Assembly (NCBI GenBank): GCA_038116745.1
Contig: JAYODW010000003.1
Location: 64,274-128,273 of the forward strand
Direction of reading: 5' to 3'
DNA length: 64,000 bases
From: Gammaproteobacteria bacterium
Lineage (GTDB): Bacteria > Pseudomonadota > Gammaproteobacteria > Ga0077536
Shown one piece after another: positions 4,189 through 36,100 of this stretch (position 1 is the first letter of the stretch; the number at the start of each line of letters is the position of its first letter). A model generated the notes under the pieces. It searched no databases. It was given only the letters and a program-made list of their open reading frames with translations, and was not told the origin of the DNA. Position numbers and translations under genes: made by a program.

Positions 4189-5169
4189 TCAGTTCGAGGC
4201 GCTCAGGCCCAGGAAGCGTGCTGCCGCGCCGTCCCAGTCGTGCGCCCCGGCGCCGTTGAGGAAGGCGGCCAGCTCGGTCTGCTGGATCACATACGGGTAA
4301 TCCGTCCCGGGAAATACCTGACCCGGGGCGAAGGTGCCGGCCAGATGGTCCAGGTACCCCGGGTCGTAAACCAGACTGTCGTAGAAGAAGCCGGCTGCGA
4401 CCACACTCGGTGATGCCCGCAGCGCTTCCTGAAAGCCGTCACTCAGTTCCCAGCTCCGGGTCAGGCGGTGCGCGAGCGGCACGATAGCGCCGCCGCCATG
4501 GCTGAAGCCGAAGCGCAGCGCGGGGAAACGCTCGCTGACGCCGGCCCGGATCAGGGTCGCCGCGGCGAGTCCGGTATCCAGTGGGAAATTGGCGAACGGC
4601 ACCAGATCCGGCCAGGTGCTGACCCGCTCGACGCCGATCGGATGCAGCGCGTGGACGAAAATCGCCAGTCCAAGCCGCTCGGCCTCGGCGTAGAACGGAT
4701 TGAACCGCGCGTCGCCCGGCATCACGCCATCGATGTTTGATCCGATCTCGACACCGGCGAAGCCATCCGCTTTCAGGCGCGACAGTTCCCGGGCGGCGAG
4801 TTCGACGTCCTGCAGTGGTACGCTGCCCAGGCCGTAAAAGCGTCCCGGCGCGGCGCTGCACAGTTCGGCAATGGCGTGATTCACCCAGCGGTTGAGTTCG
4901 AGGGCCGACGCTGGCTGCATCCAGTAGGACAGCAGTTCCGGCATCGGCGAGAGCGCCTGGGCTGTCAGTCCCTCGCGCTCCATGTCGTCGATGCGGCGCC
5001 CCATCTCCCAGGAACGCGGGTCCAGCTCGCGGAAAGGTTTACCGTCGAATTCGATCGTGGCGCGACCGGCCGCGTGATGCCGCATGCACGGCCAGCGCCC
5101 GCCGCAGCCGGGCGCAGGGTCGGCAGGAAAGGAAGCCGGCACGAGATGGGTATGGACGTCGATCAGCAT
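4189..5169 (-). CDS. Amidohydrolase-2 family metal-dependent hydrolase/decarboxylase (ACMSD/LigW-like)
   Basis: Starts MLIDVHTHLVP (metal-binding HxH) and is 326 aa. It is the last gene of the minus-strand aromatic operon. Confidence 0.7.
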   Translation of the reverse strand: MLIDVHTHLVPASFPADPAPGCGGRWPCMRHHAAGRATIEFDGKPFRELDPRSWEMGRRIDDMEREGLTAQALSPMPELLSYWMQPASALELNRWVNHAIAELCSAAPGRFYGLGSVPLQDVELAARELSRLKADGFAGVEIGSNIDGVMPGDARFNPFYAEAERLGLAIFVHALHPIGVERVSTWPDLVPFANFPLDTGLAAATLIRAGVSERFPALRFGFSHGGGAIVPLAHRLTRSWELSDGFQEALRASPSVVAAGFFYDSLVYDPGYLDHLAGTFAPGQVFPGTDYPYVIQQTELAAFLNGAGAHDWDGAAARFLGLSASN

Positions 5170-5230
5170 GGGTGTTCAGGCTTTGCGCACGCAGCAGGGC
5201 GATCGCGGTGGTCTGCTGTGGAGGAAAAGC

Positions 5231-5974
5231 TCACAGCATGGTGCTGCCGCCGTTGACGCTGATGACCTGGCCGGTGACGAAGCTCGCTTCATCGCTCGCC
5301 AGGTAGGCCACCATCGATGCGACTTCGGCCATGGTCGCGGGTCGGCCCATGGGGATGACGTTGTTGAACTGCATCACCCAGGGGTCCTGCCGCGCCATCA
5401 GTTCAGCCACCATGGGGGTGGCGACCATGCAGGGTGCCACCGTGTTGATGGTGATGTTGCGCTCGGCGAACTCGCGCGCGAGGCCGGTAGTCAGGCCGTG
5501 CATACCTCCCTTGGCTGCGTTGTAGGCGGCGTGTTCGGGCAGACCGTTGCGCACTGAATCCGCACCGAGATTGATGATGCGGCCGCCACCTTGTTCCAGC
5601 ATCACCGGCAGTACGCGATGGCAGCACCAGAGCACGGTCCACAGGTTGCGGTCGATGGTCTGTTTCAGCGATTCGGCGGTGTGCTCGAGAAACGGCCGGA
5701 TGACGCCGCCGCCGGCGTTGTTGACCAGGATGTCGATCTGCCCCAACCCGCTGCGGGCAGTTTTGACAAGACCGGCCACGGTGTCCTCCTCACAGAGGTC
5801 GCCCACAAAGCTGAGCGCGTCCGGTGCCAGCGCCGCCGCAACGGCAGGTGTGCTCTCCGCGAGATCGGCGAGGCACACGCGCGCGCCCTCGGCGACCAGG
5901 CGTTCGGCGATGGCCAGTCCGATCCCTGCTGCGCCCCCGGTGACGATGGCGGTTTTTCCCTCGAGTCGAGGCAT
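5231..5974 (-). CDS. Short-chain dehydrogenase/reductase (probable cis-dihydrodiol dehydrogenase)
   Basis: N-terminal sequence MPRLEGKTAIVTGGAAGIGLAIAERL (the TGxxxGxG motif) plus NNAG and YxxxK-type SDR motifs. The start at 5974 lies 1 nt after the upstream stop. The longer ORF to 6214 overlaps the upstream gene. Confidence 0.85.
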   Translation of the reverse strand: MPRLEGKTAIVTGGAAGIGLAIAERLVAEGARVCLADLAESTPAVAAALAPDALSFVGDLCEEDTVAGLVKTARSGLGQIDILVNNAGGGVIRPFLEHTAESLKQTIDRNLWTVLWCCHRVLPVMLEQGGGRIINLGADSVRNGLPEHAAYNAAKGGMHGLTTGLAREFAERNITINTVAPCMVATPMVAELMARQDPWVMQFNNVIPMGRPATMAEVASMVAYLASDEASFVTGQVISVNGGSTML

Positions 5975-5975
5975 A

Positions 5976-6878
5976 TCAGATCTCCAGTGTTTCCAGTGCG
6001 CCGCTGCTGCCGAAGCGGGCCTCGGGGACGGCGCCCCAGTAGTCGATCGACTCGAGTGTGGGTGGCAGCCGCCGCGGCGGGCGCGGATCCTGCTCGGGAA
6101 ACTCTTCCATGCCGAAGCTGTATTCGAGGGTGATGCCGTCCGGGTCGAGAAAGTAGAAGAAGATAGACTCTGACGGTGGATGACGTCCGGGCCCGAAGAC
6201 CACCGGGGCATCAAGCCTGCGGGCGCGGTACAGCGCGCGCCCGATGTCGTCGATGTCGGTCACCATGAAGTTGACGTGATGCAGCTGATTGCGCTCTGCG
6301 CGGCTCAGGCCCAGCGAGTGATGCAGCGGATTCGGGAAGCAGCGCAGAAACGTCACCGCACCGTCGATGCGGTCGGATACGCGGTAGTTCAGCTGCTCGG
6401 TGAAAAACCGCTCCGACGCGTCATGTTCCGCGCAGCCGAGCACCACGTGTCCGAGCCGCACGATCCGGGCCACGGTCGGTGTAAAAGCGCTCGCGGCGGC
6501 GGCAAAGCCCGCGAAATATTCAAAGGTCGCGCCGGTGGAAGGCTCGGTCACGCGAAACGCGCTGCCAAGCCCGAGTGCCGCACAGTGCTCCTCGGCAAGG
6601 TCGTAGCAGGTCAGCCCCTGCTGTTCCAGGTGTCGCCTCAGGGTGACGCAGTCTTCCTCCGTCGCCATCTCCCAGCCCACCCGGCGCAGGCCCGGACGGT
6701 CAGACTGGTGCAGGATGACATCGTGATGACGAGCGCTGCAGCGATAGAGAAATTCTTTATCTGGCGCTTCACCGGCAGGCTGCAGGCCCACCATGGCCTG
6801 ATAGAAGTCGTGCGCGCGCACCTGATCGGTGACGTTCAGCGCAACGTAGGCGAGGCGCCGGTAGCGGAAAGCAGTCAT
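5976..6878 (-). CDS. Type I extradiol ring-cleavage dioxygenase (VOC/glyoxalase superfamily, catechol 2,3-dioxygenase-like)
   Basis: 300 aa with the two-domain VOC architecture (YRRLAYVALNVTD..., HHVNFMVTDIDD...). It sits between the Rieske beta subunit and the SDR. Confidence 0.75.
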   Translation of the reverse strand: MTAFRYRRLAYVALNVTDQVRAHDFYQAMVGLQPAGEAPDKEFLYRCSARHHDVILHQSDRPGLRRVGWEMATEEDCVTLRRHLEQQGLTCYDLAEEHCAALGLGSAFRVTEPSTGATFEYFAGFAAAASAFTPTVARIVRLGHVVLGCAEHDASERFFTEQLNYRVSDRIDGAVTFLRCFPNPLHHSLGLSRAERNQLHHVNFMVTDIDDIGRALYRARRLDAPVVFGPGRHPPSESIFFYFLDPDGITLEYSFGMEEFPEQDPRPPRRLPPTLESIDYWGAVPEARFGSSGALETLEI

Positions 6879-6889
6879 GGTGAAGGTCT

Positions 6890-7396
6890 CTAAAGAATGA
6901 TGCTCACCTTACCCTGCTCGCGGATGTCGTCCTGGTCGATGAACGTGGTTTTTTCCAGGATCCTGGGCGCGCCCTCAGAGCAGGTCAGCAGGTAGCGGTG
7001 ATGGCCAAAAAAAGTGTCGGTGCGCCCCATCTTGCTACGCCAGGTGACGTAGTTGGCGCAGGCTTCAAAGCGCGCGTCGTTGCCACCGAGGATACGAACG
7101 TTGCTGATCATGCGTCGACAGCGGGAGCGGGGGAATTCGGCGTGCGCGGTGCGCTTCTTGAGTCTTTTGACCCGCTCGGTGAGACGGTGGTAGTCGTCGG
7201 CGACATAGAACAGGGTCGTCGCCGGAACCGCTGAGTCATCCGCGCCGGCAGGTGGCACCAGGTAGCGCGCCCCTTCCGCGAACAGCGCGAGCCAGCCGTC
7301 GAGGTCCCACTGGTCAAGCAGGGCGGCTTCGAGATAGAGAAAATCCTCCAGCTCGGAGCGGCTCAGCGAAGGCATCTCGGTTGTGGCGCCACGCAT
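6890..7396 (-). CDS. Aromatic ring-hydroxylating dioxygenase beta (small) subunit
   Basis: SnoaL-like beta-subunit sequence (ELEDFLYLEAALLDQWDLDGWLALF). Its ATG overlaps the alpha-subunit TGA (TGATG), indicating translational coupling. The longer ORF to 7543 would overlap the alpha subunit. Confidence 0.8.
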   Translation of the reverse strand: MRGATTEMPSLSRSELEDFLYLEAALLDQWDLDGWLALFAEGARYLVPPAGADDSAVPATTLFYVADDYHRLTERVKRLKKRTAHAEFPRSRCRRMISNVRILGGNDARFEACANYVTWRSKMGRTDTFFGHHRYLLTCSEGAPRILEKTTFIDQDDIREQGKVSIIL

Positions 7397-8670
7397 CACT
7401 GCGCTCCGGCGACGCGACGGTGCCACTCGCGCCAGAAGGCACGCATCTGCGCCTCGTCGTCCACTCGGGGTGTGACGCTCTGATAGCCCTTGGAAATGTC
7501 GTTCCAGCCGGCCCCGTCGAGATTGCTGTAGCCACGCTGACACAGCGCGAGGGCCTCGCAGTCGTCAGGTGTGGCGAAACCGCCTGGACCGAGGAACTCG
7601 AGGAAGTTGTACAGGCGGAGCTCACGCATCCGCGCTGACTCTTCTTTGGGTGCCAGCGCCCAGGCGTGCACCAGCTGCCGGTCCGGGGCCTGCGGGAAGA
7701 AGGTTCTCACGGTGATCGCCATGATGTCGTTGATCACGAGGTTCGGAAAAATGAGCAGGTTGCGATTGACGGTTGCCATCCGCCTGGCGCGCTCGGCGCC
7801 GAAGCGCTCGACCAGCCGGGCGTAGCTGGCCGCCACTTCGCGCCCGGCCTCCTCGCCCCAGGCGGGGACCGCCTGGGCCACCGGTCGCCCCCACGGTGCG
7901 GTGTACTCGACGACCGCGTGGCCCTGGCCAAGATCGTGGGCCTGACCCTCGATGGCGATATCGACCAGCGCGCCCGGTTTGGAGCGCACGTAGTCGAAGT
8001 AGCTCACATGGGTCGGCAGGCCGTGATAGCCGTCAAAGCTGTTTTCGCACAGCAGTTTCCAGTTGGCAGAAAAGCCGTAGGTCTGCGTGCCGCCGACAAT
8101 CTCCATTTCGTTCTCTGCCTGATCGAGGATCAGATCGATGAACTCGATCGCAGCGCCGAGGTAGTCGCGCAGGCTGTCCGTGCCCTGCTGGAAGTGGACG
8201 AAGCACAGACCGCGGTAGCTCTCGAGGCGCGCCACAGGCACCAGGTTGTGCAGACCGCTGTCACGGGTTTCAGCGGCGTAATCCTCGTCGCCGGGACGGT
8301 TGATCAGCTGTCCTTCCAGGCTGAAGGTCCAGGAGTGATAAAAACAGCGGAACAGGCTGCCGTTACCCTGCTGTTCGCGGCAGACCATGGCGCCTCGGTG
8401 CGGACAGCTGTTGTAGAAGCAACGCAGGCCTGCGTCTTTGCCGCGCACCAGCAGCAGCTCCCGACCGCCGACGGTGCGGGTCAGAAAGTCGCCGGCATCG
8501 GGTACTTCCGAGGCGTGGCCGACGTAAAGCCAGCAGCCGGCGAAGATCTGTCGGCGCTCGGCTTCGAGCACGGATTCATCGGTAAACACGCGGCGCGCGA
8601 CGCGGAACAGACCCCGGGCCTGGTCGTCTTCTATGAGGCTCATCGGGGACTGGTCGGGAGAAGCTGCCAT
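7396..8670 (-). CDS. Rieske non-haem iron ring-hydroxylating dioxygenase alpha (large) subunit
   Basis: Rieske motif CPHRGAMVC...CFYHSWTF followed by a catalytic domain. The start is uncertain: ATG at 8670 or 8643. The ORF start at 8823 would overlap the divergent mtoX start. Confidence 0.85.
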   Translation of the reverse strand: MAASPDQSPMSLIEDDQARGLFRVARRVFTDESVLEAERRQIFAGCWLYVGHASEVPDAGDFLTRTVGGRELLLVRGKDAGLRCFYNSCPHRGAMVCREQQGNGSLFRCFYHSWTFSLEGQLINRPGDEDYAAETRDSGLHNLVPVARLESYRGLCFVHFQQGTDSLRDYLGAAIEFIDLILDQAENEMEIVGGTQTYGFSANWKLLCENSFDGYHGLPTHVSYFDYVRSKPGALVDIAIEGQAHDLGQGHAVVEYTAPWGRPVAQAVPAWGEEAGREVAASYARLVERFGAERARRMATVNRNLLIFPNLVINDIMAITVRTFFPQAPDRQLVHAWALAPKEESARMRELRLYNFLEFLGPGGFATPDDCEALALCQRGYSNLDGAGWNDISKGYQSVTPRVDDEAQMRAFWREWHRRVAGAQ

Positions 8671-8821
8671 GCTGTAACTGGCCTGTGTGGTCGGGCTGGC
8701 GAAGGTAGCGTGCCCGTTCATGCAAGTAAATTCGGAGCGGCGTTCAAAGGCCGGCGTAGCGCACACGCGCGCTCGATGCGACACTCCGCTCTCCCAGGAG
8801 TAAACGTCAGGAGTGGAAGCC

Positions 8822-10153
8822 ATGGCTCATTCGTCGTTCAGTGCGCGCGTGCGGCGCGGCGCAGGGATGCTTGCGCTGGCGGTGAGTATGACCGCGTTTG
8901 CGGACGAAACCTGCCAATCGCCATACATGACGCCCATCAAGGGGCAGGAAGAATTTGTCTACGTCTGGACCCTTGGCGTTGACGGCGTCGGTGACGAGTC
9001 GGACAAGCTGGTGACGGTGGACGTCCGTCCGGGCAGTGAGACCTACGGCAAGGTTATCAATACTTACTCAGTCGGCGGTCAGCACGAGGCGCACCATTCG
9101 GGGCTGAGCGATGACCGCCGCACCCTGTGGGCCGGCACGCTGGATGACAGCCAGCTCTACCTCTTCGACATCGCGAGCGACCCGGCGAAGCCGCGCCTGA
9201 GAAAACACATTACAGATTTTGTCGAGGCGACCGGCGGCGCGACCGGGCCGCATACCGTATTTGCGCTGCCCGGCCGGGTGCTGATCACCGCCACCTCGAA
9301 CAACCGCGACCATGGCGGGCGCAGCGCGCTGGTCGAGTACAGCAACGAAGGCGACTACATCGCGACCCACTGGATCCCGACGCCCGACAACATGCAGGGT
9401 GCCACCGGCGCCGAGTTTGCAGACGGCTACAACTACGACGTGCGTGCGCTGCCGCGCAAGAACGTGATGCTGACCTCGAGCTGGACCGGCTGGTCAAACT
9501 ACATGCGTAACGCCAGCGAGGTGATGAGCGACCCGGTGGCGATGAAACGCTTCGGCAACTCGATCACCGTGTGGAATCTGCATACCCGCCAGCCGCTCAA
9601 GGTACTGCAGGTGCCCGGCACCCCCCTGGAGATCCGCTGGGCGCTCAGTCCTGAGCACAACTATGCTTTCACGCATGCCAGCCTGACCTCAAAGCTGTGG
9701 CTGATTTATGAAGACGCGCAGGGTGAGTGGCAGGCTAAGGAGGTGGCCACAGTCGGCGATCCCGAGAAGCCCACATTTCCGGGCTCCATCATGATCACCA
9801 ATGATGATCAGTATCTCTGGTGGCAGGGGATCGGCGACGGCACTACACGCCTGCTGGACATCCGCGACCCGTTCAATCCCAAAGAGATCTACGCCAAACG
9901 CATCGGCAGCCAGATCAACATGGGCTCGACCAGCTGGGACGGCAAGCGGCTCTATTTCACCTCCTCAGCGCTGTCTAAATGGGACCGTAACGATGAGCAG
10001 GCTGAGCAGTTTCTGCGCGCCTATGATTGGGACGGGAAGGAGCTGGTGCAGACGTTCAGCATCGATTTCATTGCTGAGGGGCTGGGGCGGGCCCACCAGA
10101 TGCGCTTCGGTGCCTATAGCCTGTATTCCGATGTGACAACGGCCCAGCGCTGA
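8822..10153 (+). CDS. mtoX: Selenium-binding-protein (SBP56) family methanethiol oxidase
   Basis: Extended similarity to the SBP56 family, for example VTVDVRPGSETYGKVIN...HHSG and TSWDGKRLYFTSSALSKWD against human SELENBP1 LSLDGKRLYITTSLYSAWD. It has an N-terminal signal peptide. The ATG at 8822 is preceded by AGGAG. Confidence 0.85.
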   Translation: MAHSSFSARVRRGAGMLALAVSMTAFADETCQSPYMTPIKGQEEFVYVWTLGVDGVGDESDKLVTVDVRPGSETYGKVINTYSVGGQHEAHHSGLSDDRRTLWAGTLDDSQLYLFDIASDPAKPRLRKHITDFVEATGGATGPHTVFALPGRVLITATSNNRDHGGRSALVEYSNEGDYIATHWIPTPDNMQGATGAEFADGYNYDVRALPRKNVMLTSSWTGWSNYMRNASEVMSDPVAMKRFGNSITVWNLHTRQPLKVLQVPGTPLEIRWALSPEHNYAFTHASLTSKLWLIYEDAQGEWQAKEVATVGDPEKPTFPGSIMITNDDQYLWWQGIGDGTTRLLDIRDPFNPKEIYAKRIGSQINMGSTSWDGKRLYFTSSALSKWDRNDEQAEQFLRAYDWDGKELVQTFSIDFIAEGLGRAHQMRFGAYSLYSDVTTAQR

Positions 10154-10187
10154 CCCCGCGCTTGGAATAATTGCACGGGCCTGCCGG

Positions 10188-10994
10188 GTGAACCGCACCG
10201 ATCGCACGCCGTGGGTGGTGGCTGGTGTTGCGCTGCTCGTGGCCCTGGGGCTCAAACTGCAGACAACTGGACCCTCACCCGCGCCGCGCCGCACTGCGCC
10301 TGCAATAGTTGAGGAGAGCAACGCTGCGGCGCATGAGCCCGCCCACGCGCACGCCGCGATGATGCCGGCAGCGGGGTTGGATCTGTCCCGCACGGCCGAG
10401 TTTGATTTTGATCCCCCGGTAGCAGGGACCTATAGGCTCCCGGTGATCCGGCCGGCGGCTGACGGCGCCGTGCTCGATAGCGCCGGGACCGCGCGCACGC
10501 TGCACGAGCTCTACGCCGGACGCATCGTTCTGCTCAGCTTTATCTACACCCGCTGCACAGATGCCAACGGCTGCCCGCTGGCGACGGCGGTGCTGTATCG
10601 CATTTTCGGCGCCAGTCAGGCGGACGCAGAGCTGGCCGCAAACCTGCGCCTGGTCAGCCTGAGCTTCGACCCGGAACATGACACCCCCGAGGTCATGGCT
10701 GGCTACCGGGATGGTGCAGGGCCGCAGTGGGCAGATGGGGCCGAGTGGTTGGATCTCACAACTGCATCAGAGGCTGAGCTGCAGCCTATCCTCAACGACT
10801 ACGATCAGCTTGCGCGGCGACGGGTCGATGACGCAGGCCGGCCGACGGATGTGTTCGGCCACCAGCTGCGCGCCTATCTCATCGATCGGCAGCAGCGGAT
10901 CAGGAACATCTATGGCCTCGGCTTCATGGATCCGCGGCTGCTGGTGGCGGACGTGCGGACCCTGCTGGCCGAGGAACGCGGCGCGGCGCACTGA
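10188..10994 (+). CDS. SCO1/SenC-family thioredoxin-fold copper chaperone
   Basis: N-terminal TM/signal segment and a thioredoxin-like core with YTRCTDANGCP...H. It lies directly downstream of the SBP56 gene. GTG start. Confidence 0.7.
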   Translation: MNRTDRTPWVVAGVALLVALGLKLQTTGPSPAPRRTAPAIVEESNAAAHEPAHAHAAMMPAAGLDLSRTAEFDFDPPVAGTYRLPVIRPAADGAVLDSAGTARTLHELYAGRIVLLSFIYTRCTDANGCPLATAVLYRIFGASQADAELAANLRLVSLSFDPEHDTPEVMAGYRDGAGPQWADGAEWLDLTTASEAELQPILNDYDQLARRRVDDAGRPTDVFGHQLRAYLIDRQQRIRNIYGLGFMDPRLLVADVRTLLAEERGAAH

Positions 10995-10998
10995 GCTG

Positions 10999-12210
10999 GT
11001 GAGCGTGTCGGTAGCGCAGGCGGGGCCCCTCGTGGCGGGTTTTCAGGCCCGCCGATCCAAGCGATGGCTCGCGCTGTTTGCGGGCCTGCTGGCGTCCTGC
11101 GCAGTGGCGGCCATGGACATGGACCAGCGCGCGCTTGCACGCTTGCGACAGCCACCCCTCGGCCTGCCGGCGGTCCCCGTGCCCGCTGACAACCCGCCGA
11201 CCTCGGCGAAGATTGCACTGGGACGCAAGCTTTTTTTCGACCGCCGCCTGTCGCACAACCGCACCATGTCCTGTGCCATGTGCCACATCCCGGAGCAGGG
11301 TTTTACCAATAATGAAGTTGCCACGCCGGTCGGCGTGAAGGGGCGCAGCCTGCCGCGCAATGCGCCGACTGTGTTCAACGTTGCGTACGAGACCCGCCTG
11401 TTCCACGACGCGCGCGAAACCTCGCTCGAGAACCAGGTACTGAGTCCGCTCCTCGCCCGCGAGGAGATGGCGAATCCCTCGGTTGGGTACCTGCTTGAGA
11501 CCATCACCGCAGCGCCTGACTATGACGGGCAGTTCGAGCAGGCTTTCGGCGCGCCCGCTGATGTGCGCAATATCGGCCAGGCGCTGGCGAGCTATCAGCG
11601 CACCCTGGTGTCGGCAAACGCGCCGTTTGATCGCTGGTATTTCGGCGGCGATGCGGATGCCCTGTCGCTGAGCGCGCAGCGCGGGTTCAAGCTGTTCATG
11701 GAGAAGAGCGGCTGCGTGCAGTGCCATAGCCTGGGCGGTGACAGCGCGCTGTTCACTGACCAGCGCCTGCATGTCACCGGCGCCGGGCGCCGACCTTCAG
11801 GCAATGCGGGAGCGGCAGGCGCGGCAGTGACGGTGGAACTGGTGCCGGGGGTGGTGACCCCGGTGCAGCTGAAGCCCGGTGCCGACAGCCTGCGCCACGA
11901 GCTGCCGGACACCGGACGTATGGCGATCACACACGACCCGGTCGATCAGTTCGCGTTCAAGACCCCGGGACTGCGCAACGTGGCGCTGACGGCGCCCTAC
12001 ATGCACGACGGCTCGCTCGAAACGCTGGAGGCGGTGGTGCGCTTTTATCGTGCCGGCGGCGGTGAACTACCGGGACGCGATCCGCTGTTGCGGCCGCTGA
12101 CGCTCGATGCTGAAGAGATTGCGGATCTGGTCGCTTTCCTGGAAAGCCTGACCGGGGATAACGTCGCAGAGTTGATTGACGACGCGCGCAGCGCGCCTAT
12201 TGGTAATTGA
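10999..12210 (+). CDS. Di-haem cytochrome c peroxidase / MauG-like protein
   Basis: Two CxxCH haem motifs (CAMCH, CVQCH) and a CCP/MauG-like fold. It probably starts at GTG 10999, just after the SCO1 stop, with a lipoprotein-like leader (LLASC). The listed ORF from 10678 overlaps SCO1. Confidence 0.75.
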   Translation: MSVSVAQAGPLVAGFQARRSKRWLALFAGLLASCAVAAMDMDQRALARLRQPPLGLPAVPVPADNPPTSAKIALGRKLFFDRRLSHNRTMSCAMCHIPEQGFTNNEVATPVGVKGRSLPRNAPTVFNVAYETRLFHDARETSLENQVLSPLLAREEMANPSVGYLLETITAAPDYDGQFEQAFGAPADVRNIGQALASYQRTLVSANAPFDRWYFGGDADALSLSAQRGFKLFMEKSGCVQCHSLGGDSALFTDQRLHVTGAGRRPSGNAGAAGAAVTVELVPGVVTPVQLKPGADSLRHELPDTGRMAITHDPVDQFAFKTPGLRNVALTAPYMHDGSLETLEAVVRFYRAGGGELPGRDPLLRPLTLDAEEIADLVAFLESLTGDNVAELIDDARSAPIGN

Positions 12211-12233: not shown

Positions 12234-12908
12234 TCAGTCGATCAGGATCAGCTGGTCCGGCAGTTCGTTGACGTCACCGCTGTCGCGCGGCAGCAGTCTT
12301 GTGAGCAGACTGCCGGCCAGCGCAAGACCGTCGAGCAGGCCCTGCGTCGGATCGTCCCGACGCATGCCGTCGACCACCGCCGCGCAGATCGCATCCCATT
12401 CAGCCAGTGAGACGCGCGCGTCGACCGCGTCGTCGCCGAGAACCCGCACACGATGCTCGTAGAGCGAGACGTAGATCAGCAGCCCGGTGCCGCCCGCCGT
12501 TCCTCTGACGCGGTGGGTCTGGAACGCGGCGCGCGCTGCACGGTCCACCTCGGCGTCAATCTCTGCGCTGCTGATGAAGGGCAAGCGCAGCAGCGGTACA
12601 CGGCTTGCCAGCCACGCGCCGCCGATGAAACCCAGAGCGAAGATCGCCAGCACCCCGATTAAGCCGAGGCGGGGCGCGGCCGCGCCGCTCCACGCAGCCT
12701 CGCCAGTCCCCTGCTGGACGAACCAGATGGCGCTTACTGCAGCCAGAGCAACGACGAGCCCGAACAGATCCTCTGCCCGGTCATAGCGCCCGGAGCTGGT
12801 TGCAACTACCGGCACGATCTCGCCGGCAGTGCCCGATTCCGCAGCTGCAATCGCCGCACTGATGCGGGTGCGGTCCTGCTCGCTGAACAGACTGCTGGCG
12901 CTTTTCAT
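12234..12908 (-). CDS. TPM-domain (DUF477/YgcG-like) membrane protein
   Basis: Contains GEIVPVVATSSGRYDRAEDLFGL, a TPM-phosphatase-like sequence, followed by a TM helix. The ATG at 12908 is preceded by GAGGAGA. The longer ORF overlaps the upstream gene. Confidence 0.55.
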   Translation of the reverse strand: MKSASSLFSEQDRTRISAAIAAAESGTAGEIVPVVATSSGRYDRAEDLFGLVVALAAVSAIWFVQQGTGEAAWSGAAAPRLGLIGVLAIFALGFIGGAWLASRVPLLRLPFISSAEIDAEVDRAARAAFQTHRVRGTAGGTGLLIYVSLYEHRVRVLGDDAVDARVSLAEWDAICAAVVDGMRRDDPTQGLLDGLALAGSLLTRLLPRDSGDVNELPDQLILID

Positions 12909-12918
12909 CGACGTCTCC

Positions 12919-13668
12919 TCACCACGAGCCGCTGGCGCCACCGCCACCGGAGGAGCCGCCGCCGAAGCCGCCGCCCGATCCGCTGGACGCAGCCCGCAGG
13001 GCAAAGAAAAGCAGCGCCGCCATGGCCAGGATCAAAGCCCACGCCCAGCCCTTGCGGCCGGTCTTGAACAGGTTGACGACCAGCAGGACGAAGCCGATGG
13101 CGCCCACAATCAGCAGCGGCAGAACCCAGGCCGGCCGCGTTGGCCGCGGCAGACCAAGTCCCCGGGCAACGGCGTCGAGCCCACGCACGCCGTCCATGAT
13201 GCCGACGGCGAAGTCGCCCCGCTTAAACGCCGGCACGATCAGCGATTGCATGATGTCCATGGCCTGAGCGTCGTATTGATGCTCAAAGCCGGCGCCGAAC
13301 TCGATGCGCGCTTTGCGGTCGCCGCGGGAGACCAGCAGGAGCATGCCGTAGTTACGGTCCTCAGAGCCGATTCCCCAATGGTCGAACAGCGCGGTGGCAT
13401 ATCCCTCAATGCCCATGCCGGTCGCTTCGTATTGCGCCAGTGACGCGATGGTTACTACGAACAGGGGAATCTGCTCATCACGCAGCAGGAGCAACGCCGT
13501 CTCGTTGACCTTGGCTTTAGCTGCATCATCGAGCATGCCCGCCTCGTCGACGAAGAAATCGGCATCCGGCGGCTTGTCCGGAAAGGAGGCGGCGAGCACC
13601 ATGCTGTGAAACAGGCATGACAACGCCATCAGAAAACAGAAAACCAGACGTTGTCTGAACGGAGTCAT
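12919..13668 (-). CDS. TPM-domain protein with signal peptide, C-terminal TM helix and glycine-rich tail
   Basis: Signal peptide, then a TPM-like core (FVVTIASLAQYE..., LLLVSRGDRKARIEFGAG), a TM helix and a GGGFGGGSSGGGGASGSW tail. Confidence 0.6.
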   Translation of the reverse strand: MTPFRQRLVFCFLMALSCLFHSMVLAASFPDKPPDADFFVDEAGMLDDAAKAKVNETALLLLRDEQIPLFVVTIASLAQYEATGMGIEGYATALFDHWGIGSEDRNYGMLLLVSRGDRKARIEFGAGFEHQYDAQAMDIMQSLIVPAFKRGDFAVGIMDGVRGLDAVARGLGLPRPTRPAWVLPLLIVGAIGFVLLVVNLFKTGRKGWAWALILAMAALLFFALRAASSGSGGGFGGGSSGGGGASGSW

Positions 13669-13826: not shown

Positions 13827-15677
13827 ATGGAACGACATCATCTGGTCTTGCTGCTCCTCGCTGGCCTGGCAGGCAACGCCTCCGCCGCCGAGCCTGCGGT
13901 CGCCGGTTCAGCATCCACTTTCTCCAGCGGCGCCGAGTGGCTGAGCTACAACAAGTCGCTGGATGGCCAGCGCTATTCGCCCCTGACGCAGATCAACCGC
14001 ACCAACGCGGCAGAGCTCACAGAAGTCTGCCGTGTGCAGGTCGACGACAGCGGCTCATTCCAGGCCGGCCTCATTGTGGTCGACGACGTCATGTACGCAA
14101 CGACCGCCACCGATACGCTGGCGCTGAATCCGGTGAACTGTGAGGTTATCTGGCGCGTCAGCTATCGGCGCGAGGACGCCGCACCTTTCCCGGTCAATCG
14201 CGGGGTGGCATACAACGGCGGGCGGCTGTTCCGCGGGACTGATGACGGTCGTGTGATTGCGCTTGACGCGCGCACCGGACAGGAGCTGTGGTCGAACATC
14301 GTCGGCGAGCCTGGCTACGGCGAGGTGGTGACCGGCTCACCGCTGGTCTGGAACGGTTTGTTAATCGTCGGCACGGCGGTGTCCGAATTCGGCTCCCGCG
14401 GACGGGTGATTGCTTTCGACACGGTTTCAGGGCGGGAGATCTGGCGCTTCAACACCGTGCCGGCCGAGGGCGAGCCGAATTACGAGACCTGGGGCGGAAG
14501 CGTCTGGAACACCATCACCGGCGGCGGAGGCGGCAGCTGGTCGCATTTCGCGCTGGATCCGTCAACGGCGGAAGTGTTCATCCCGGTCGGCAACCCGATC
14601 CCGGACTTCGTGCCCGCAGAGCGCCCCGGCGACAACCTTTACACCAACTGCGTGCTGGTGCTCGACGCGCGTACCGGCCAGCTCAAGTGGTGGTATCAGC
14701 TCGCGCCCAGCGACGGTCTGGACCATGACCTCGCAGCGGCCCCTGTGCTGTATCGAGACTCCAAGGGCAAGCGGCGCGTCGCGGCGGCGGGCAAGGACGG
14801 CTACCTGCACATCATCGACCGTGAAACCCACCAGCGGCTGGCGCGTACCGCCGTCACTACGGTCACCGAGCCGGTCGCGGTGCCGACCCCGGAAGGGATC
14901 GAGGCCTGCCCCGGCCCTGCTGGTGGCGTGGAATGGAACGGACCGGCGTTTCACCCGGAACTGAACCGGCTGTTCGTCGGTTCGCTCGACTACTGTGCGC
15001 TGTTCATGGCTGAGCCGGGCACGAAACCTGCCGTCGGCGGTTACAACATGGGCGGCACGTGGAGTGGTCTCGGTACCCCGCGCGGCTGGATCGTCGGCAT
15101 CGATGCCGACAGTGGCGAAGTCGCCTGGCGCTACCACGCGGACTACCCGGTCGTCGGGGCGCTCACAGCTACTGCCGGCAATGTCCTTTTCGGCGGCGAT
15201 AACGCCGGCAAGTTTCTGGTGTTCGATGCGGACACGGGCGAGATATTGAAAGAAGTGGCTACCGGCGGGTCGTTGTCGGGTGGTCTGATCACCTACGCAC
15301 AGCGCGGGCGGCAGTACGTGGCGATGACTTCGGGCAATATCTCGCGCTCCCTGTTCGGGGCGATGGGGCGCCCGTCGATTCTGATCATGGCGTTGCCGCA
15401 AGCGGTGATCGCGGCCGGGCAGAATACGGCGGCGTCGAGCGCAGCGCGCGGGCATGTGGCGTACGGACGCTATTGCGCTGTTTGTCATGGCGCGCAGGGC
15501 AGCGACTGGCAGAACGTCGATCTGAAAGCGGTCAAGCGCAAAATGAACGCCGAGCAGCTCGTGGCGTTCATGCGCAACCCACGCGCACCGATGCCTAAAC
15601 CGTTTGCCGAGCCCTGGTCGTCGGCGGACGAACAGCGGGCGCGGGATATCGCTGCGTTTCTGATGCAGTGGCAATAA
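13827..15677 (+). CDS. PQQ-dependent quinohaemoprotein dehydrogenase (type II alcohol dehydrogenase-like) with C-terminal cytochrome c domain
   Basis: Signal peptide and PQQ beta-propeller repeats (repeated W..G motifs). The C-terminal CAVCHG is a haem c site. RBS AGGGAGA lies upstream of the ATG. Confidence 0.8.
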   Translation: MERHHLVLLLLAGLAGNASAAEPAVAGSASTFSSGAEWLSYNKSLDGQRYSPLTQINRTNAAELTEVCRVQVDDSGSFQAGLIVVDDVMYATTATDTLALNPVNCEVIWRVSYRREDAAPFPVNRGVAYNGGRLFRGTDDGRVIALDARTGQELWSNIVGEPGYGEVVTGSPLVWNGLLIVGTAVSEFGSRGRVIAFDTVSGREIWRFNTVPAEGEPNYETWGGSVWNTITGGGGGSWSHFALDPSTAEVFIPVGNPIPDFVPAERPGDNLYTNCVLVLDARTGQLKWWYQLAPSDGLDHDLAAAPVLYRDSKGKRRVAAAGKDGYLHIIDRETHQRLARTAVTTVTEPVAVPTPEGIEACPGPAGGVEWNGPAFHPELNRLFVGSLDYCALFMAEPGTKPAVGGYNMGGTWSGLGTPRGWIVGIDADSGEVAWRYHADYPVVGALTATAGNVLFGGDNAGKFLVFDADTGEILKEVATGGSLSGGLITYAQRGRQYVAMTSGNISRSLFGAMGRPSILIMALPQAVIAAGQNTAASSAARGHVAYGRYCAVCHGAQGSDWQNVDLKAVKRKMNAEQLVAFMRNPRAPMPKPFAEPWSSADEQRARDIAAFLMQWQ

Positions 15678-16301: not shown

Positions 16302-17474
16302 TTACTCGATACTGAAAACTGGTTTCCAGCCGGCCGGGGCGAGGGTGGTCGTTGTGTCGAAGGCCTGAAGCGTCTGAGGCGTCACCGCGACGGGAAGCGG
16401 CTGCACGTGTTCAGCCAGACGTCCCAGATCGGTTAATTGCGGTCGGCCGCCTGTGGCCATCGGTTTTCCTTCGAGCAGACGGACCGCCTGGTCGACCGCT
16501 ATGCGGGCCTGCAAGATGACCTGGTCTGTGGGTGCCATGGCAACCTGACCCTGCGCGATCAGCTCATGCACGCTCTGCGTGTAGTAATACACCACGATTT
16601 TGACGCGGTCCGTCATTCCTCGGTCACGCAGCACGGCGATGGCGCTCTCTGCCGTTGGTGAGGTTCCGACGATATAGGCCAGGTCGGGATAGGCGTTCAG
16701 CCCTGCTTCAACCAGCTCGCGCTGTGCCTCGATGCTGGTGTCTCCCCAACGGGTGTCGACGATCTCGGCGGCGCTGCCCTCTACTGCAGCGCGGCAACCC
16801 TGATCACCGCCCAGTGACCAGCCGGCGCCATAGGGGCCCGGATACCATCCGATCCTGACGGTCGGGGTTCCCGCAGGGTGCCGCTCGGCGACCCAGCTGC
16901 AGGCCATGTACCCCATGCTGAAATAACTCTCGACTGATTTGGCATCGACCGCGTTATTGGTGCCGTTGATGAGGTCAACCACCTTCACGCCCTGAGCCCG
17001 CAGGGCGTCCACCTGCGGCGCGTTGCCGTCGCTCGAGATAGCGCCGAGCAGGACCGCTTCCGCCCCGCCGGTGGCGCAGGTGTCGATCTGGGCGAGCTGC
17101 TTGCTGAGGTTGCCATAGCCGCCGGCTTCGACCAGCGTGATTTTCTGGCCCAGCCGTCGGCCCTCCTCGATGATGCCGTAGGCTGCCGCCAGCCAGTAGG
17201 AATCTTCGTTCAGATGTGGAAACGAGACGCAGAGATGATGCTTCCCCGTCACCGCCGCCGGCATCAGGGGTTCGTAATAGGCTTGCTCGAGCCGGTTCGC
17301 GCTGTTCCGCGGATCGTTCACGCAGGCAGCCGTACCGTCGGTGCAGGCGGGGTTGAAGACCTGTACCCTGGCGGGCCACCACGGCGGGACCTCATCCGCT
17401 CCCGCAGTCAGGGCCAACAACGCGCTCAGGGTGAGGATGATGCCGCGGCTGGTATGTTGGGTAAGCGCTTTCAT
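16302..17474 (-). CDS. Periplasmic binding protein, sugar-binding/TorT-like (Peripla_BP family); orphan, no permease nearby
   Basis: Signal peptide (MKALTQHTSRGIILTLSALLALTAGA) followed by a two-lobe PBP fold. Start chosen at the ATG at 17474. Confidence 0.6.
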   Translation of the reverse strand: MKALTQHTSRGIILTLSALLALTAGADEVPPWWPARVQVFNPACTDGTAACVNDPRNSANRLEQAYYEPLMPAAVTGKHHLCVSFPHLNEDSYWLAAAYGIIEEGRRLGQKITLVEAGGYGNLSKQLAQIDTCATGGAEAVLLGAISSDGNAPQVDALRAQGVKVVDLINGTNNAVDAKSVESYFSMGYMACSWVAERHPAGTPTVRIGWYPGPYGAGWSLGGDQGCRAAVEGSAAEIVDTRWGDTSIEAQRELVEAGLNAYPDLAYIVGTSPTAESAIAVLRDRGMTDRVKIVVYYYTQSVHELIAQGQVAMAPTDQVILQARIAVDQAVRLLEGKPMATGGRPQLTDLGRLAEHVQPLPVAVTPQTLQAFDTTTTLAPAGWKPVFSIE

Positions 17475-17884
17475 TGCTGAGGTTCCTTCGTCCGGTGGCC
17501 GCACATGATGCTCCATCGTCATTGCCGGATGCGCCGACATCGACCGGTTGGTGCTGGCCCGCCTGGAAGCCAGTAGGCGCCGTATATGGGGCCGTCTTCA
17601 TCCTACCTTTCTGGTCGGGTGGCCGCGATCCCGCCGCAACCGCCACGCCTCAGTGGTCCCGCCGCAGTGTTATCAGTGACGCCAGCCGGTTTATAGTCCG
17701 ACCCCGCATCAATTCACGAAAGCGGCGCCTCAATGCGCCAGAACACCCATGCCAAGAAACCGGTCGTCGCAATTGATGAGCGTGCCGCCCGAGGATCAGA
17801 CGCAGCACCTCAGCGGCGCCAGCGGAGGCAGGCAGGAGCGGACAGGTGACGCCGTTGGATCAATGGACCTGATGGAGAAACGAC

Positions 17885-18912: not shown

Positions 18913-20559
18913 ATGGCTGAGAACACATCCCCGAACAGTCCGCCGGATTGCGACGTTGTCGTGGTTGGCGCAGGATTTGCCGGCATCTACGCCCTGTGGC
19001 AGGCGCGCCAGCGTGGCTTTTCGGTGCGCGGCTTCGAGCGCGGATCAGACGTCGGCGGCACCTGGTACTGGAACGCGTACCCCGGCGCGCGCTGCGACGT
19101 CGAAAGCTACAACTACGCCTATTTTTTCCGCGACGACATCGTGCGGGACTGGGACTGGAGCGATGCCTGCGCCGGTCAGGCCGAGATCCAGCGCTACCTG
19201 CGCTTTGTCGCCGAGCGCTGCGAGGTGCTCGGGGACATTACCTTCAACACGCCGATCGGCGCGGCCCGCTACGACGACGAAAGCGGTCTTTGGCGGGTCG
19301 AGACAGCGGGCGGTGAGACCGTTGTGTGTCGCTACCTGGTGCTCGCGATCGGTGCTCTGTCCGATCCCAAGGCACCGGATATCGAGGGCGTGGACGATTT
19401 CGCCGGCGAGGCCTACTTCACCTCCAGCTGGCCAAAAGACGGCCGAGTGGATCTCCGGGGTAAACGGGTCGGCATCATCGGTACGGGATCCTCCGGGGTA
19501 CAGGTCGTTCCCGAGATCGCAAAGCTCGCCGGGGAGGTCCATGTTTTCCAGCGCACGGCGAACTTCGTGACGCCCACGCATGCAGGTCCGATGGATCCGG
19601 AGCTGGTGGCAGCCCTTCGCGAAGATCCGCAGGCGGTGCGGCGGGCGTTCCGTGAGACCTACGGGGGGCACACCCCGCTCAGCATGGGCAGCGAGCGCTA
19701 TCTGGAACTTGATGAGGCCGGCCGCGCTCGCGTGCTGCAGCAGGCATGGGACGAAAACTACATCGCGCTCGCGTTCCGGGACGCCTACCTACCGGAAGCC
19801 AATGCCGCAATCTCCGATTTCATCCGCCAGCGTATGCAGGAAGTTGTAAAAGACCCCTGGACCGCGCATCACCTGGTGCCCTGGGATCATCCCTACGGCG
19901 GCAAGCGGCCCTGTCAGAGCGACGTCTACCTGCAGACTTTCAACGAGCCGCATGTGCACCTGGTGTCTTTGCGCGAGACGCCGATTGAGCGCATTGAGCA
20001 GGGCGGGATCCGCACGAGCGAAAAAATCATTCCTCTCGATGTGATCGTCTACGCGACCGGCTTTGATGCGATATCCGGCCCAGTGTTCGCGATCGACATC
20101 AGTGGGGTCGGCGGCCGTTCCATGCGGGAGACCTGGGCTGATGGCCCGCTGAACTATCTCGGCACCATGGTTAACGGTTTCCCCAACCTGTTTCTGCCCT
20201 CGAGCGCGATGTCGCCGTCAGTGCTGTCCAACATGGCGACGCTAGCTGAGCAGCAGGTGGACTTCATTTTCGACACGGCGGAATGGCTGGATCAGCACGG
20301 CCGACCGCGGCTGCATCCCCTCCCGGAGTCGCAGATGTTCTGGCGTGAGGAGACGCTACGGTACGCCAAACGCAGACCCGGCGCGCTGACCACGCGCAGC
20401 TGGTACTCTGGCGCCAACATTCCGGGGAAGCCACGCATGTTCATGGTCTACTGCGGAGGCTTTAAGCGCTATAACGAGACCTGCTACGACGAGCTCAGCG
20501 CCGGCTTCCCGGGCTATGAACTGCTCCCGCCGCCGCACCTGGAGCGCGGTGCAGCTTGA
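18913..20559 (+). CDS. Baeyer-Villiger-type flavin monooxygenase (class B), paralog 1
   Basis: VVVVGAGFAG FAD Rossmann, GGTWYWNAYPGARCD, second Rossmann GIIGTGSSG. The BVMO fingerprint reads FAGEAYFTSSWP, with Phe in place of the canonical His. Confidence 0.8.
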   Translation: MAENTSPNSPPDCDVVVVGAGFAGIYALWQARQRGFSVRGFERGSDVGGTWYWNAYPGARCDVESYNYAYFFRDDIVRDWDWSDACAGQAEIQRYLRFVAERCEVLGDITFNTPIGAARYDDESGLWRVETAGGETVVCRYLVLAIGALSDPKAPDIEGVDDFAGEAYFTSSWPKDGRVDLRGKRVGIIGTGSSGVQVVPEIAKLAGEVHVFQRTANFVTPTHAGPMDPELVAALREDPQAVRRAFRETYGGHTPLSMGSERYLELDEAGRARVLQQAWDENYIALAFRDAYLPEANAAISDFIRQRMQEVVKDPWTAHHLVPWDHPYGGKRPCQSDVYLQTFNEPHVHLVSLRETPIERIEQGGIRTSEKIIPLDVIVYATGFDAISGPVFAIDISGVGGRSMRETWADGPLNYLGTMVNGFPNLFLPSSAMSPSVLSNMATLAEQQVDFIFDTAEWLDQHGRPRLHPLPESQMFWREETLRYAKRRPGALTTRSWYSGANIPGKPRMFMVYCGGFKRYNETCYDELSAGFPGYELLPPPHLERGAA

Positions 20560-24676: not shown

Positions 24677-25056
24677 CCCAGTCGGGGAGTTCTGCGTGTT
24701 GACGGTTGTAGCGGGGCACGTGAGCGTAGCGGCTACCGCCGATCCAGCGTGTCGCTCTGCCAGGGAGGCAGGTCGCAATCGGGAGGTTGGTTGGGCGATG
24801 GCGAGACAAGCAGCGGGCGAACAGCGCCGCAGCTGTGACGTTCTGCGAGCCTGTAGATCAGCGCTATAAACGACACCACGGAAGACCGTTCGGGCTCTGA
24901 TTTCTGAGCCCTGTATGCCGGGGCCAGGCATCTCTGCAGTTGCGCTGGTGGTCAGGTGTGGCGCGAGCTTGATGTTTCCCAAGGCGTGCTAACCTCACTG
25001 CTCCTTGTTCCAGGCGCCCTGTGCACTCGTTGCTTATGATGGATTCAGACCCGGTC

Positions 25057-28000: not shown

Positions 28001-28674
28001 CGGCCGTGCTGTACGTGTTTCGCACGCTGGTTGTGGACGATATTCCTCTCAATGCCGGCTGTCTGAAACCGCTTGAGGTCCGGATCCCTGCAGGTTCGCT
28101 GCTCAATCCGCGTTATCCGGGCGCGGTAGTGGCGGGTAACGTCGAGACGTCCCAGTGTGTGACCGATACCCTTTACGGCGCGCTCGGCGTGATGGCGGCT
28201 GCGCAGGGCACCATGAACAACTTCACTTTCGGCAATGCCCGTTACCAGTATTACGAAACCCTGTGCGGCGGGTCCGGTGGTGGACCCACCTGGGATGGCT
28301 GCGATGCGGTGCACACGCATATGACCAATTCCCGTCTGACCGATCCGGAGGTCCTGGAGTGGCGGTTTCCGGTGCGCCTGGAACGCTTTGAGATTCGACG
28401 CGGCAGCGGCGGCGCTGGACGCCACCGCGGCGGCGACGGTACCGAGCGGCAGATCCGTTTTCTCGAGCCTATGACGGCCGCTATCCTGGCGGGTCGGCGG
28501 CGCGTGCCCCCGTACGGCATTGCGGGCGGAGCAAGCGGCGCCCCGGGACGCAACTGGGTGGAGCGCACCGATGGCCGCAGAGAGGATTTCGGGCCGACCC
28601 ATGAAGTGGAGATGCAGGCCGGGGACGTGTTTGTGATCCAGACCCCGGGCGGCGGAGGCTACGGCGCGCCCTAG
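25057..28674 (+). CDS. Fused hydantoinase A/B / 5-oxoprolinase-family ATP-dependent cyclic-amide hydrolase
   Basis: N-terminal sequence [21 protein letters not shown], a hallmark of OplAH/HyuA. The HyuA and HyuB halves sit on one ~1200-aa polypeptide. Confidence 0.8.
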
Positions 28675-28999: not shown

Positions 29000-29094
29000 A
29001 CACGACAGCGGCCGGCAGGACATGCGACACTGCCCCCACGCAACAACCGGTCGATGGGTGCGGATGTGCTCTGCGACCCGGTGAAATCCGTTTG

Positions 29095-34825: not shown

Positions 34826-36100
34826 TTGAACCCAGGCGCACTGCTGAAACACCCGCTGCTTGTCGCAGGACTGGTCGCGGTCGTCATCGCCCTAGTGATG
34901 TTTCGTCCGCGTGCCGCGGATGAGTCGCCAATCCGGATCGGGATCCTGCACTCGCTGACCGGCGCCATGGCGATAAGTGAGCGCAGTATGGTCGACGCCG
35001 AGCTGCTGGCGGTCGAGGAAATCAATCGTGGTGGCGGTCTGCTCGGGCGACAGGTCGAGGCCGTTGTCGCTGATGGTCAGTCGGACTGGCCGACCTTTGC
35101 GCGAGAGGCAGAACGACTGATCTCGGAAGAGAAAGTGGTGACGGTGTTCGGCTGCTGGACGTCGGCCAGTCGAAAGACCGTGAAGCCGGTGTTTGAACAG
35201 CATGATCACCTGCTGGTTTACCCCATGGCCTACGAGGGCCTCGAACAATCTCGCAATATCGCCTACATCGGCGCCGCACCTAATCAGCAGGTCACGCCGG
35301 CCCTGACCTGGGGCGTCGAAAATCTGGGCAAGCGCGTGTTCCTGGTGGGTTCGGACTACGTGTGGCCGCGCACCATCAACGCGATCATGAAGGACATGCT
35401 GCCAAGCCTCGGCGCGGAGCTGGTCGGCGAGAGCTACGTGTTTTTCGGGAGCACGAAACTCGACCAGACCGTGGCAAAGATCAAGGCTGCCGCACCGGAC
35501 TTGGTCATCAGCTCAGTGGTGGGCGACAGCAATCCCGCGTTTTATCGTGCGCTGCGTGAAGCCGGCATCAGCGCTGAATCGACACCCGTTCTGACCTTCA
35601 GCATCGGTGAGTCGGAGCTGCTAGAGATGGATCCGCTGGATGTCAGCGGGCACTTTGCCGCCTGGAGCTATCTGCAGAGCCTGCCGGGGCAAACCAATCA
35701 GGAGTTCATCGCTCGATTCCGCGAGCGGTTTGGCGCTGAGCGGGTAACCAGCGACGTGATTGCTACCGCCTACAGCAGCGTCCTGCTGTGGGCACAGGCA
35801 GTGGAACAGGCGCAGAGCATCGAAGTCGATCAGATCCGTACTGCGCTGTACGGGCAGAGCATCGCAGCGCCGGAAGGGATCATTTCGGTGGATGCAGCGA
35901 CCGGGCATGCATGGCGCTCGATCTCGATCGGCCGAATCAATAAGTCGCGCGGTATCGATCAGGTATGGGCGCTGGAGCGACCCATTCGCCCGGTGCCTTT
36001 TCCCAGCAGCCGCACGCCGGCAGCCTGGCGCATGTACCTGGACCACCTGTATCAGGCCTGGGGCAACAGCTGGGCTAACCCGGAGGAGAGCGCGCTGTGA
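34826..36100 (+). CDS. Periplasmic ligand-binding protein of the LivK/UrtA/AmiC family (Peripla_BP_6)
   Basis: Signal/TM leader followed by [39 protein letters not shown], which is UrtA/AmiC-like. Probable TTG start. Its stop overlaps the next gene's GTG (GTGA). Confidence 0.7.

Follow-up and report, generated by a model that had tools for sequence, protein, structure and literature searches.

A marine gammaproteobacterial mtoX-sco-mauG-like operon predicted to encode a periplasmic methanethiol oxidase and two accessory proteins

Methanethiol oxidases (MtoX) of the SBP56 family have been described in several bacteria next to genes for a SCO protein and a MauG-like protein. In Ruegeria pomeroyi DSS-3, the genes SPOA0268-0272 comprise iclR, mtoX, a SCO gene, a cytochrome c peroxidase/MauG-like gene and a glutathione-dependent formaldehyde dehydrogenase gene. 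Knockout of mtoX abolishes methanethiol oxidation in this organism, and methanethiol induces its transcription (PMC5739008). The copper enzyme purified from Hyphomicrobium sp. VS (KY242492) is a periplasmic SBP56 protein with a signal peptide, and its gene is followed by separate SCO1/SenC and mauG genes (PMC5739008). In Methylophaga thiooxydans, SCO1 and MauG are fused into one gene, followed by tlpA, pdo, sqrB and sulP; these clusters are induced on dimethyl sulfide (DMS) (PMC6548844). Here we describe a 64-kb window, the whole stretch of DNA that was read, from the metagenome-assembled genome (MAG) of an uncultured, high-GC marine gammaproteobacterium (contig JAYODW010000003.1). Positions 8822-12210 of its plus strand hold an intact copy of this already described three-gene methanethiol-degradation operon, a system that standard annotation pipelines already name. 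We assign a probability of about 0.85 to the reading that the three genes constitute one operon for a periplasmic copper-dependent methanethiol oxidase and two dedicated accessory proteins, which would serve copper delivery and a maturation that oxidises tryptophan.

The operon consists of three co-oriented, closely packed open reading frames (ORFs):

8822-10153, plus strand: mtoX (SBP56 family), ATG at 8822, 443 aa
10188-10994, plus strand: SCO1/SenC-like gene (sco), 268 aa, 34 nt past mtoX
11005-12210, plus strand: MauG-like di-haem gene, 401 aa from the GTG at 11005, 10 nt past sco

An AGGAG sequence lies 8 nt 5' of the mtoX ATG, and the mtoX product is identical to a database protein (P0001) from short contigs of NCBI MAG GCA_038120055.1. 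The longest ORF of the MauG-like gene opens at 10678. Its plausible start is the GTG at 11005, as called on a public contig (L082), with 10999 (GTG) and 11032 as other possible starts. Pfam matches to SBP56 (2e-43), SCO1-SenC (5e-14) and CCP_MauG (6e-51) are far above chance, as is the match of MtoX to the NCBIfam model NF052453. A preliminary description of this DNA had placed genes for an SBP56, a SCO1/SenC and a MauG-like protein at 8822-12210, and the ORFs and Pfam matches agree exactly with both the coordinates and the identities.

The sequence supports the assignment of the first gene as mtoX, encoding a periplasmic methanethiol oxidase. The protein aligns to positions 1-407 of 408 of NF052453, the methanethiol oxidase equivalog, with 661.1 bits (cutoff 650, E 4e-199), and is 61% identical to SPOA0269, the mtoX product encoded on the R. 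pomeroyi DSS-3 megaplasmid. Residues were mapped by alignment with the R. pomeroyi enzyme (RpMTO) and nine database homologues, while the correspondence to Hyphomicrobium MtoX was drawn through RpMTO and the archaeal S. tokodaii SBP56 structure 2ECE. The latter is the only PDB relative found by sequence search, and the four His residues align there too. All MtoX residues named in the literature are kept, namely the TCQSPYM Cys, four His and two Trp (PMC5739008, PMC10936201), and they are identical to those of R. pomeroyi. Cys31, the only Cys in the protein, lies inside an exact TCQSPYM motif that begins at residue 30. It corresponds to Cys28 of RpMTO, which forms a Cys-S-S-CH3 adduct and is needed for activity; the sole-Cys TCQSPYM feature was defined in the same work (PMC10936201). 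His91, His92, His144 and His425 correspond to His88, His89, His141 and His424 of RpMTO and to His89, His90, His140 and His412 of the Hyphomicrobium enzyme. They are invariant in all 64 homologues with genomic context and are the proposed copper ligands (PMC5739008). Trp224 and Trp387 correspond to RpMTO Trp223 and Trp386, the proposed precursors of a tryptophan tryptophylquinone (TTQ).

The N-terminus (MAHSSFSARVRRGAGMLALAVSMTAFA/DETC), read from the alignment, contains a hydrophobic core and an A-x-A site that are conserved across homologues. Residues ~1-27 are predicted to form a signal peptide, with a mature start at ...MTAFA/DETCQSPYM, a pattern common to all homologues. Twin-arginine (Tat) export was considered on account of an RR pair in the signal peptide and rejected, as the pair is not conserved among homologues. 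Human SELENBP1, the Roseobacter denitrificans enzyme RdMTO and 2ECE share the SBP56 fold and the four His residues with the window MtoX, but are only about 25-28% identical to it. They have no signal peptide, TCQSPYM Cys, SCO or MauG partners, and carry Pro at the Trp224 position in our alignment. SELENBP1 and RdMTO are cytoplasmic methanethiol oxidases of cluster 1, and all three proteins are, like MtoX, copper-dependent thiol oxidases (PMC13603461).

The order of the three genes is conserved far beyond the window. A scan of species-representative genomes yielded 80 loci with MtoX relatives at 56-85% identity, and neighbour conservation was assessed by tblastn with all 40 window proteins against the loci flanking mtoX homologues. 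Members of the MtoX cluster were found in NCBI MAGs, Tara, ENA and JGI data. Where a locus reaches far enough, a SCO gene almost always comes directly after mtoX. It is followed immediately by the MauG-like gene in 22 loci, R. pomeroyi included, from Alpha-, Beta- and Gammaproteobacteria, Myxococcota and Rokubacteria. Two of these (L005 and L056) encode SCO::MauG fusions, as reported for Methylophaga (PMC6548844). The likeness to mtoX clusters of methanethiol degraders, put forward in the preliminary description, is thus borne out by the NF052453 score above cutoff, the identity to SPOA0269 and the shared order in R. pomeroyi and 21 other loci, and none of the published ligand and catalytic residues is lost.

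No other window gene is kept beside mtoX, so the conserved unit is a three-gene cassette. The neighbouring genes for TPM proteins, a pyrroloquinoline quinone (PQQ) dehydrogenase, a Rieske dioxygenase, a TorT-like protein, TauE and a methyl-accepting chemotaxis protein (MCP) were considered as system components and rejected, as they are never conserved beside mtoX in the 80 loci. This extends to the closest relatives (78-85% identity). In two of these, L002 and L003, mtoX has other neighbours: a major facilitator superfamily transporter, a luciferase-like monooxygenase and a molybdopterin enzyme. The TauE/SafE and DUF442-MCP genes had been read earlier as fitting one sulfur theme with the operon, and the TPM and PQQ dehydrogenase genes had been named as its neighbours. 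The TauE and MCP genes do exist, but with none of the four accompanying mtoX elsewhere, such links are not supported.

Two variations were seen among the relatives. A tandem duplicate mtoX precedes a single sco-mauG pair in some of them (6521-7792 and 8001-9305 in L004; also on the contig of P0008). In L003, a 458-aa luciferase-like monooxygenase gene (5039-6415, minus strand) is located ~1.6 kb upstream of mtoX and has no counterpart in the window; the DMS monooxygenase DmoA is a member of this family.

The third gene encodes a protein with a signal peptide and a CCP_MauG domain (Pfam, 173 bits). It contains two CxxCH haem motifs, C90/C93/H94 (CAMCH) and C237/C240/H241 (CVQCH). Its best PDB match is MbnH (6E1C, 2e-44), followed by canonical bacterial cytochrome c peroxidases (bCCPs) and, lower, by MauG. 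The scores against the NCBIfam models for MbnH (TIGR04039, 250 bits, cutoff 362.85) and the MauG equivalog (TIGR03791, 219 bits, cutoff 443.85) are both under the cutoff. The protein is MauG-like in its haem ligation, yet outside both the MauG and the MbnH equivalog families. Tyr348 falls on the position of the axial ligand Tyr294 of MauG in a fragment alignment to 3L4M, where canonical bCCPs have Met. None of the 22 mtoX-linked homologues departs from this Tyr or from either CxxCH motif, and the R. pomeroyi protein has the same Tyr together with an LFHDGR motif. Two c-haems and a Tyr at this position are likewise found in MbnH, MauG and BthA (6NX0).

The Trp that lies between the haems in bCCPs is replaced by His, Val or Gln across the mtoX-linked homologues. 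Burkholderia BthA also combines a Tyr ligand with the lack of an inter-haem Trp, and forms bis-Fe(IV) yet reduces H2O2 (PMC6405878); it is the only characterised example of this combination that we found. In MauG and MbnH systems the partner is methylamine dehydrogenase or MbnP, respectively. In contrast, the 64-kb window contains no mauA or mauB gene and no mbnP-like gene adjoins the MauG-like gene; the presumed substrate here is MtoX. An LLASC sequence raised the possibility of a lipoprotein, which was rejected as a family feature, the motif being absent from homologues.

Comparison of MtoX sequences with their gene neighbourhoods separates two subfamilies:

Type A (includes the window): residues 145/333/344 are Thr/Trp/Leu (Ala344 in L005); Trp224 invariant; MauG-like gene linked in 22 of 22
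Type b: residues 145/333/344 are Gly/Phe/Val; Trp224 replaced by Leu, Met or His in 13 of 42; MauG-like gene absent in 42 of 42

For type b, the absence of mauG was counted over the 42 loci whose sequence continues for 3 kb or more downstream. Its hosts are mostly Verrucomicrobia, with two Alphaproteobacteria and one myxobacterium. The sco gene is kept next to mtoX also where mauG is absent, and no replacement third gene was found in the mauG-less loci, where even the commonest ORF family occurs in no more than 7 of 41. On a neighbour-joining tree that has cytoplasmic SBP56 proteins as its root, the clade of the window (the window and L001-L004) branches first, earlier than the R. pomeroyi lineage, and the mauG-less type is essentially one clade. 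The invariance of Trp224 in mauG-linked MtoX is suggestive of a MauG-dependent role for this residue. Independent co-variation of mauG with MtoX residues was considered and rejected: since the mauG-less type forms one clade, mauG was probably lost in a single event and the co-variation is not statistically independent.

The replacement of the peroxidase Met ligand by Tyr in 22 of 22 homologues is the hallmark of the protein-oxidising enzymes MauG and MbnH, and makes it unlikely that the MauG-like protein is instead a periplasmic peroxidase that scavenges H2O2 beside MtoX. Recurrent fusion to a SCO domain (L005, L056; PMC6548844) also suits a maturation module better than a detoxifier, and the constraint on Trp224 is confined to MtoX with a linked mauG. 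The scavenging role nevertheless draws on several observations. The protein belongs to the bCCP/MauG superfamily, in which canonical peroxidases score nearly like MbnH (1e-42 to 1e-44), and BthA, Tyr-ligated and without the inter-haem Trp, turns over H2O2 catalytically (PMC6405878). MtoX also does without the MauG-like protein, both as made in E. coli (PMC10936201) and in the subfamily that has no linked mauG. In M. thiooxydans, catalase and peroxiredoxin are induced on DMS, a sign of H2O2 stress (PMC6548844); against the scavenging role, no H2O2 was detected from RpMTO-type MtoX (PMC10936201).

The second gene product scores 52.9 bits against Pfam SCO1-SenC (PF02630, gathering score 22.8) and has no NCBIfam match. 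It contains an N-terminal membrane anchor, a His/Met-rich linker (AAAHEPAHAHAAMMP) and a thioredoxin-fold domain. When aligned to 4WBJ, the structure of Bradyrhizobium ScoI, this domain shows two extra residues between its cysteines. The SCO copper triad of two Cys and one His is retained. The His of FGHQLRAYLID aligns with that of 4WBJ (MDHTALIYLMD), the third copper ligand, and is present in all 14 homologues inspected. The spacing of the two cysteines is C-x5-C in 75 of the 77 mtoX-linked SCO homologues, R. pomeroyi included (CGDVNGCP), and CxxxC in the other two. The mtoX-linked proteins can be described as a subfamily with a C-x5-C(P/L/M) motif, to which the clade of the window adds a His-rich linker, such as AHAGHHQHA in L002.

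SCO proteins have thiol-disulfide reductase activity, and the thioredoxin fold here carries the atypical C-x5-C in place of the copper-binding CxxxCP. It is therefore conceivable that the SCO-like protein is a thiol:disulfide oxidoreductase that keeps Cys31 of MtoX reduced, or a persulfide acceptor that takes sulfane sulfur from Cys31-SSH, and not a copper chaperone. Such a function would match the Cys-S-S-CH3 and Cys-SSH intermediates reported for MtoX catalysis (PMC10936201) and the retention of sco beside mtoX even without mauG. We consider it quite improbable, given that the third copper-ligand His is kept throughout the homologues inspected, that the clade of the window has added a linker resembling copper-binding sequences, and that the activity of MtoX and SELENBP1 is strictly copper-dependent (PMC5739008, PMC13603461).

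It is very unlikely that the protein is mainly a selenium-binding or other thiol-detoxifying SBP56 protein with a different physiological thiol. In favour of this, the name of the family refers to selenium binding, several alkyl thiols are substrates of relatives (PMC13603461), the clade of the window is only ~60% identical to characterised enzymes and scarcely clears the NF052453 cutoff, and the 64-kb window showed no genes for DMSP (dimethylsulfoniopropionate), DMS or methionine-gamma-lyase. Against it, purified MtoX contained no selenium, every mtoX-carrying strain tested degraded methanethiol (PMC5739008), and conservation extends to all catalytic and ligand residues as well as to the partners in the operon.

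A copper-dependent methanethiol oxidase with two accessory proteins would operate as follows. MtoX would be exported by its cleavable signal peptide, leaving DETCQSPYM as the mature N-terminus. With O2, it would cut methanethiol, and probably other short alkyl thiols, at the C-S bond, using a copper site held by His91, His92, His144, His425 and the N-terminal Cys31. The products would be formaldehyde and inorganic sulfur, either as H2S with H2O2 or as sulfane sulfur with water. RpMTO-type enzymes made in E. coli formed sulfane sulfur, with no H2O2 detected (PMC10936201). In contrast, RdMTO and human SELENBP1 yielded H2S, H2O2 and formaldehyde in strict dependence on copper (PMC13603461); these two belong to the other, SELENBP1-like enzyme cluster. 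Formaldehyde, sulfide and H2O2 had been named as the products for this locus; the identity of MtoX on which that claim was built is supported, while the product set is contested between these two studies.

The membrane-anchored SCO-like protein, with its two Cys, its His and its His/Met-rich linker, most likely hands copper to periplasmic MtoX. The Tyr-ligated di-haem enzyme, by comparison with MauG, MbnH and BthA, most likely uses H2O2 to oxidise Trp224 of MtoX, with or without Trp387, and the oxidised Trp would become a protein-derived cofactor or ligand. MbnH makes a kynurenine copper ligand in MbnP. Since no characterised enzyme is more closely related to the di-haem protein than MbnH, a kynurenine-type modification of MtoX is at least as plausible as TTQ. 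A wider possibility, offered tentatively, is that the mauG-like gene marks the MtoX subfamily with Thr145/Trp333/Leu344 and invariant Trp224, in which the di-haem enzyme would install a Trp-derived modification. This could be an MbnH-like, kynurenine-type copper ligand and not the TTQ proposed in 2018. The C-x5-C SCO protein would then be the matching dedicated copper insertase, and the mauG-less subfamily might run the same reaction unmodified.

Several points weigh against the proposed operon function. MtoX exceeds the NF052453 cutoff by only 11 bits, its clade branches outside all characterised MtoX, and enzymatic activity is deduced from the genome of an uncultured organism. Whereas gene identities, residue conservation and gene order are direct observations, we infer the roles of the SCO-like and MauG-like proteins. 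The SCO-like motif, CTDANGCP, is C-x5-C-P and not the canonical copper-binding CxxxC(P). In the MauG-like protein, His134 replaces the inter-haem Trp (LFHDAR versus QFWDGRA in bCCPs), which is seen as important for MauG chemistry; the equation of this bCCP Trp with MauG Trp93 is taken from PMC6405878. RpMTO purified from E. coli was active, with no co-expression of sco or mauG reported (PMC10936201), and the large mauG-unlinked subfamily means that the MauG-like protein is not universally required for MtoX. The association of Trp224 with mauG probably reflects one loss event, not repeated independent ones. TTQ or another Trp modification has never been demonstrated in an MtoX, and a 2025 review of protein-derived cofactors lists no MtoX Trp cofactor. 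The earlier proposal of copper maturation by the SCO1 and MauG-like partners is best taken as an interpretation drawn from the literature.

The surroundings of the operon differ from those of the described clusters:

8671-8821: divergent intergenic region of 151 bp between the Rieske alpha gene (minus strand) and mtoX (plus strand)
12234-13668, opposite strand: two TPM-domain genes, convergent with the mtoX operon
13827-15677, plus strand: PQQ dehydrogenase carrying a cytochrome c domain at its C-terminus
36097-38469, plus strand: BLH/DUF442-dCache-HAMP-MCP gene, about 24-26 kb beyond the operon end
38696-39535: TauE gene, about 24-26 kb beyond the operon end

A Rieske dioxygenase alpha/beta pair lies upstream, divergent from mtoX. 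The alpha gene probably spans 7396-8670, its start having been inferred from a 424-aa gene call on contig L083. The divergent Rieske genes, the two TPM genes and the PQQ dehydrogenase had been described as the setting of the operon and are all present; the TPM genes, which had been said to follow it, are on the opposite strand and convergent. Unlike in R. pomeroyi, there is no upstream IclR gene and no downstream formaldehyde dehydrogenase gene, and, while roseobacters have iclR, no regulator gene adjoins the operon. As in M. thiooxydans, the mtoX of the window is gammaproteobacterial and has genes for SCO and MauG functions downstream of it. Here these genes are, however, separate, and no sulfide or persulfide oxidation genes adjoin them; the entire 64-kb window contains no sulfide or formaldehyde oxidation genes.

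The 151-bp region presumably holds the mtoX promoter. A sigma-70-like consensus was found neither in this region nor inside the operon or at the operon ends, where terminators were lacking as well. There was also no significant inverted repeat in the operon or the divergent intergenic region. The sole terminator-like match is on the minus strand at 13644-13658, inside the TPM genes.

Other genes of the window show features of their own. The quinohaemoprotein PQQ dehydrogenase is atypical. Its best PDB match is the type II alcohol dehydrogenase 1KV9, but the vicinal Cys-Cys of PQQ alcohol dehydrogenases is missing (SCCDAVNRG of 1KV9 aligns to AAPFPVNRG), and its score of 318 is below the NCBIfam methanol/ethanol-family cutoff of 480. 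The catalytic Asp is part of D-H-D, with Asp at +2, where 1KV9 has D-F-T. An Asp at +2 of the catalytic Asp is a signature of lanthanide-dependent PQQ enzymes. The chemoreceptor at 36097-38469 is an unusual fusion of an N-terminal BLH/DUF442 phosphatase-like domain to dCache, HAMP and MCP domains. It is positioned after a Peripla_BP_5/6 binding protein and before TauE, and other genomes do not have it linked to mtoX. The gene at 16302-17540 (minus strand) encodes a TorT-like periplasmic binding protein that scores 279 bits, above the PRK10936 cutoff, and neither TorS/TorR nor a trimethylamine N-oxide reductase gene adjoins it.

The window also contains four genes for Baeyer-Villiger/flavin monooxygenase-like proteins of ~550 aa (18913-20559, 29092-30723 and 45982-47643 on the plus strand, 52417-54081 on the minus strand), a Rieske dioxygenase-extradiol dioxygenase-short-chain dehydrogenase/reductase-amidohydrolase cluster at 4189-8670 and a fused hydantoinase A/B gene at 25021-28674. 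This richness in catabolic oxygenases suggests a versatile hydrocarbon or ketone degrader. A PilZ-DUF1631-GGDEF-EAL protein of 1256 aa is encoded at 59856-63626 (plus strand), and a 467-aa ORF at 50847-52250 (minus strand) has no Pfam match.

Methanethiol is a central intermediate in the marine breakdown of DMSP, DMS and methionine, and mtoX serves as a marker gene for that consumption. The present locus, an intact mtoX operon of an uncultured marine gammaproteobacterial lineage, lengthens the list of likely methanethiol sinks and leaves the understanding of the pathway unchanged. The new details visible in the sequences are minor: the C-x5-C spacing of mtoX-linked SCO proteins, a Tyr-ligated MauG-like protein without an inter-haem Trp, and a MauG linkage that tracks an MtoX subfamily with invariant Trp224. 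Together, these features could guide work on what the two accessory proteins do and on the MtoX mechanism, which is disputed.

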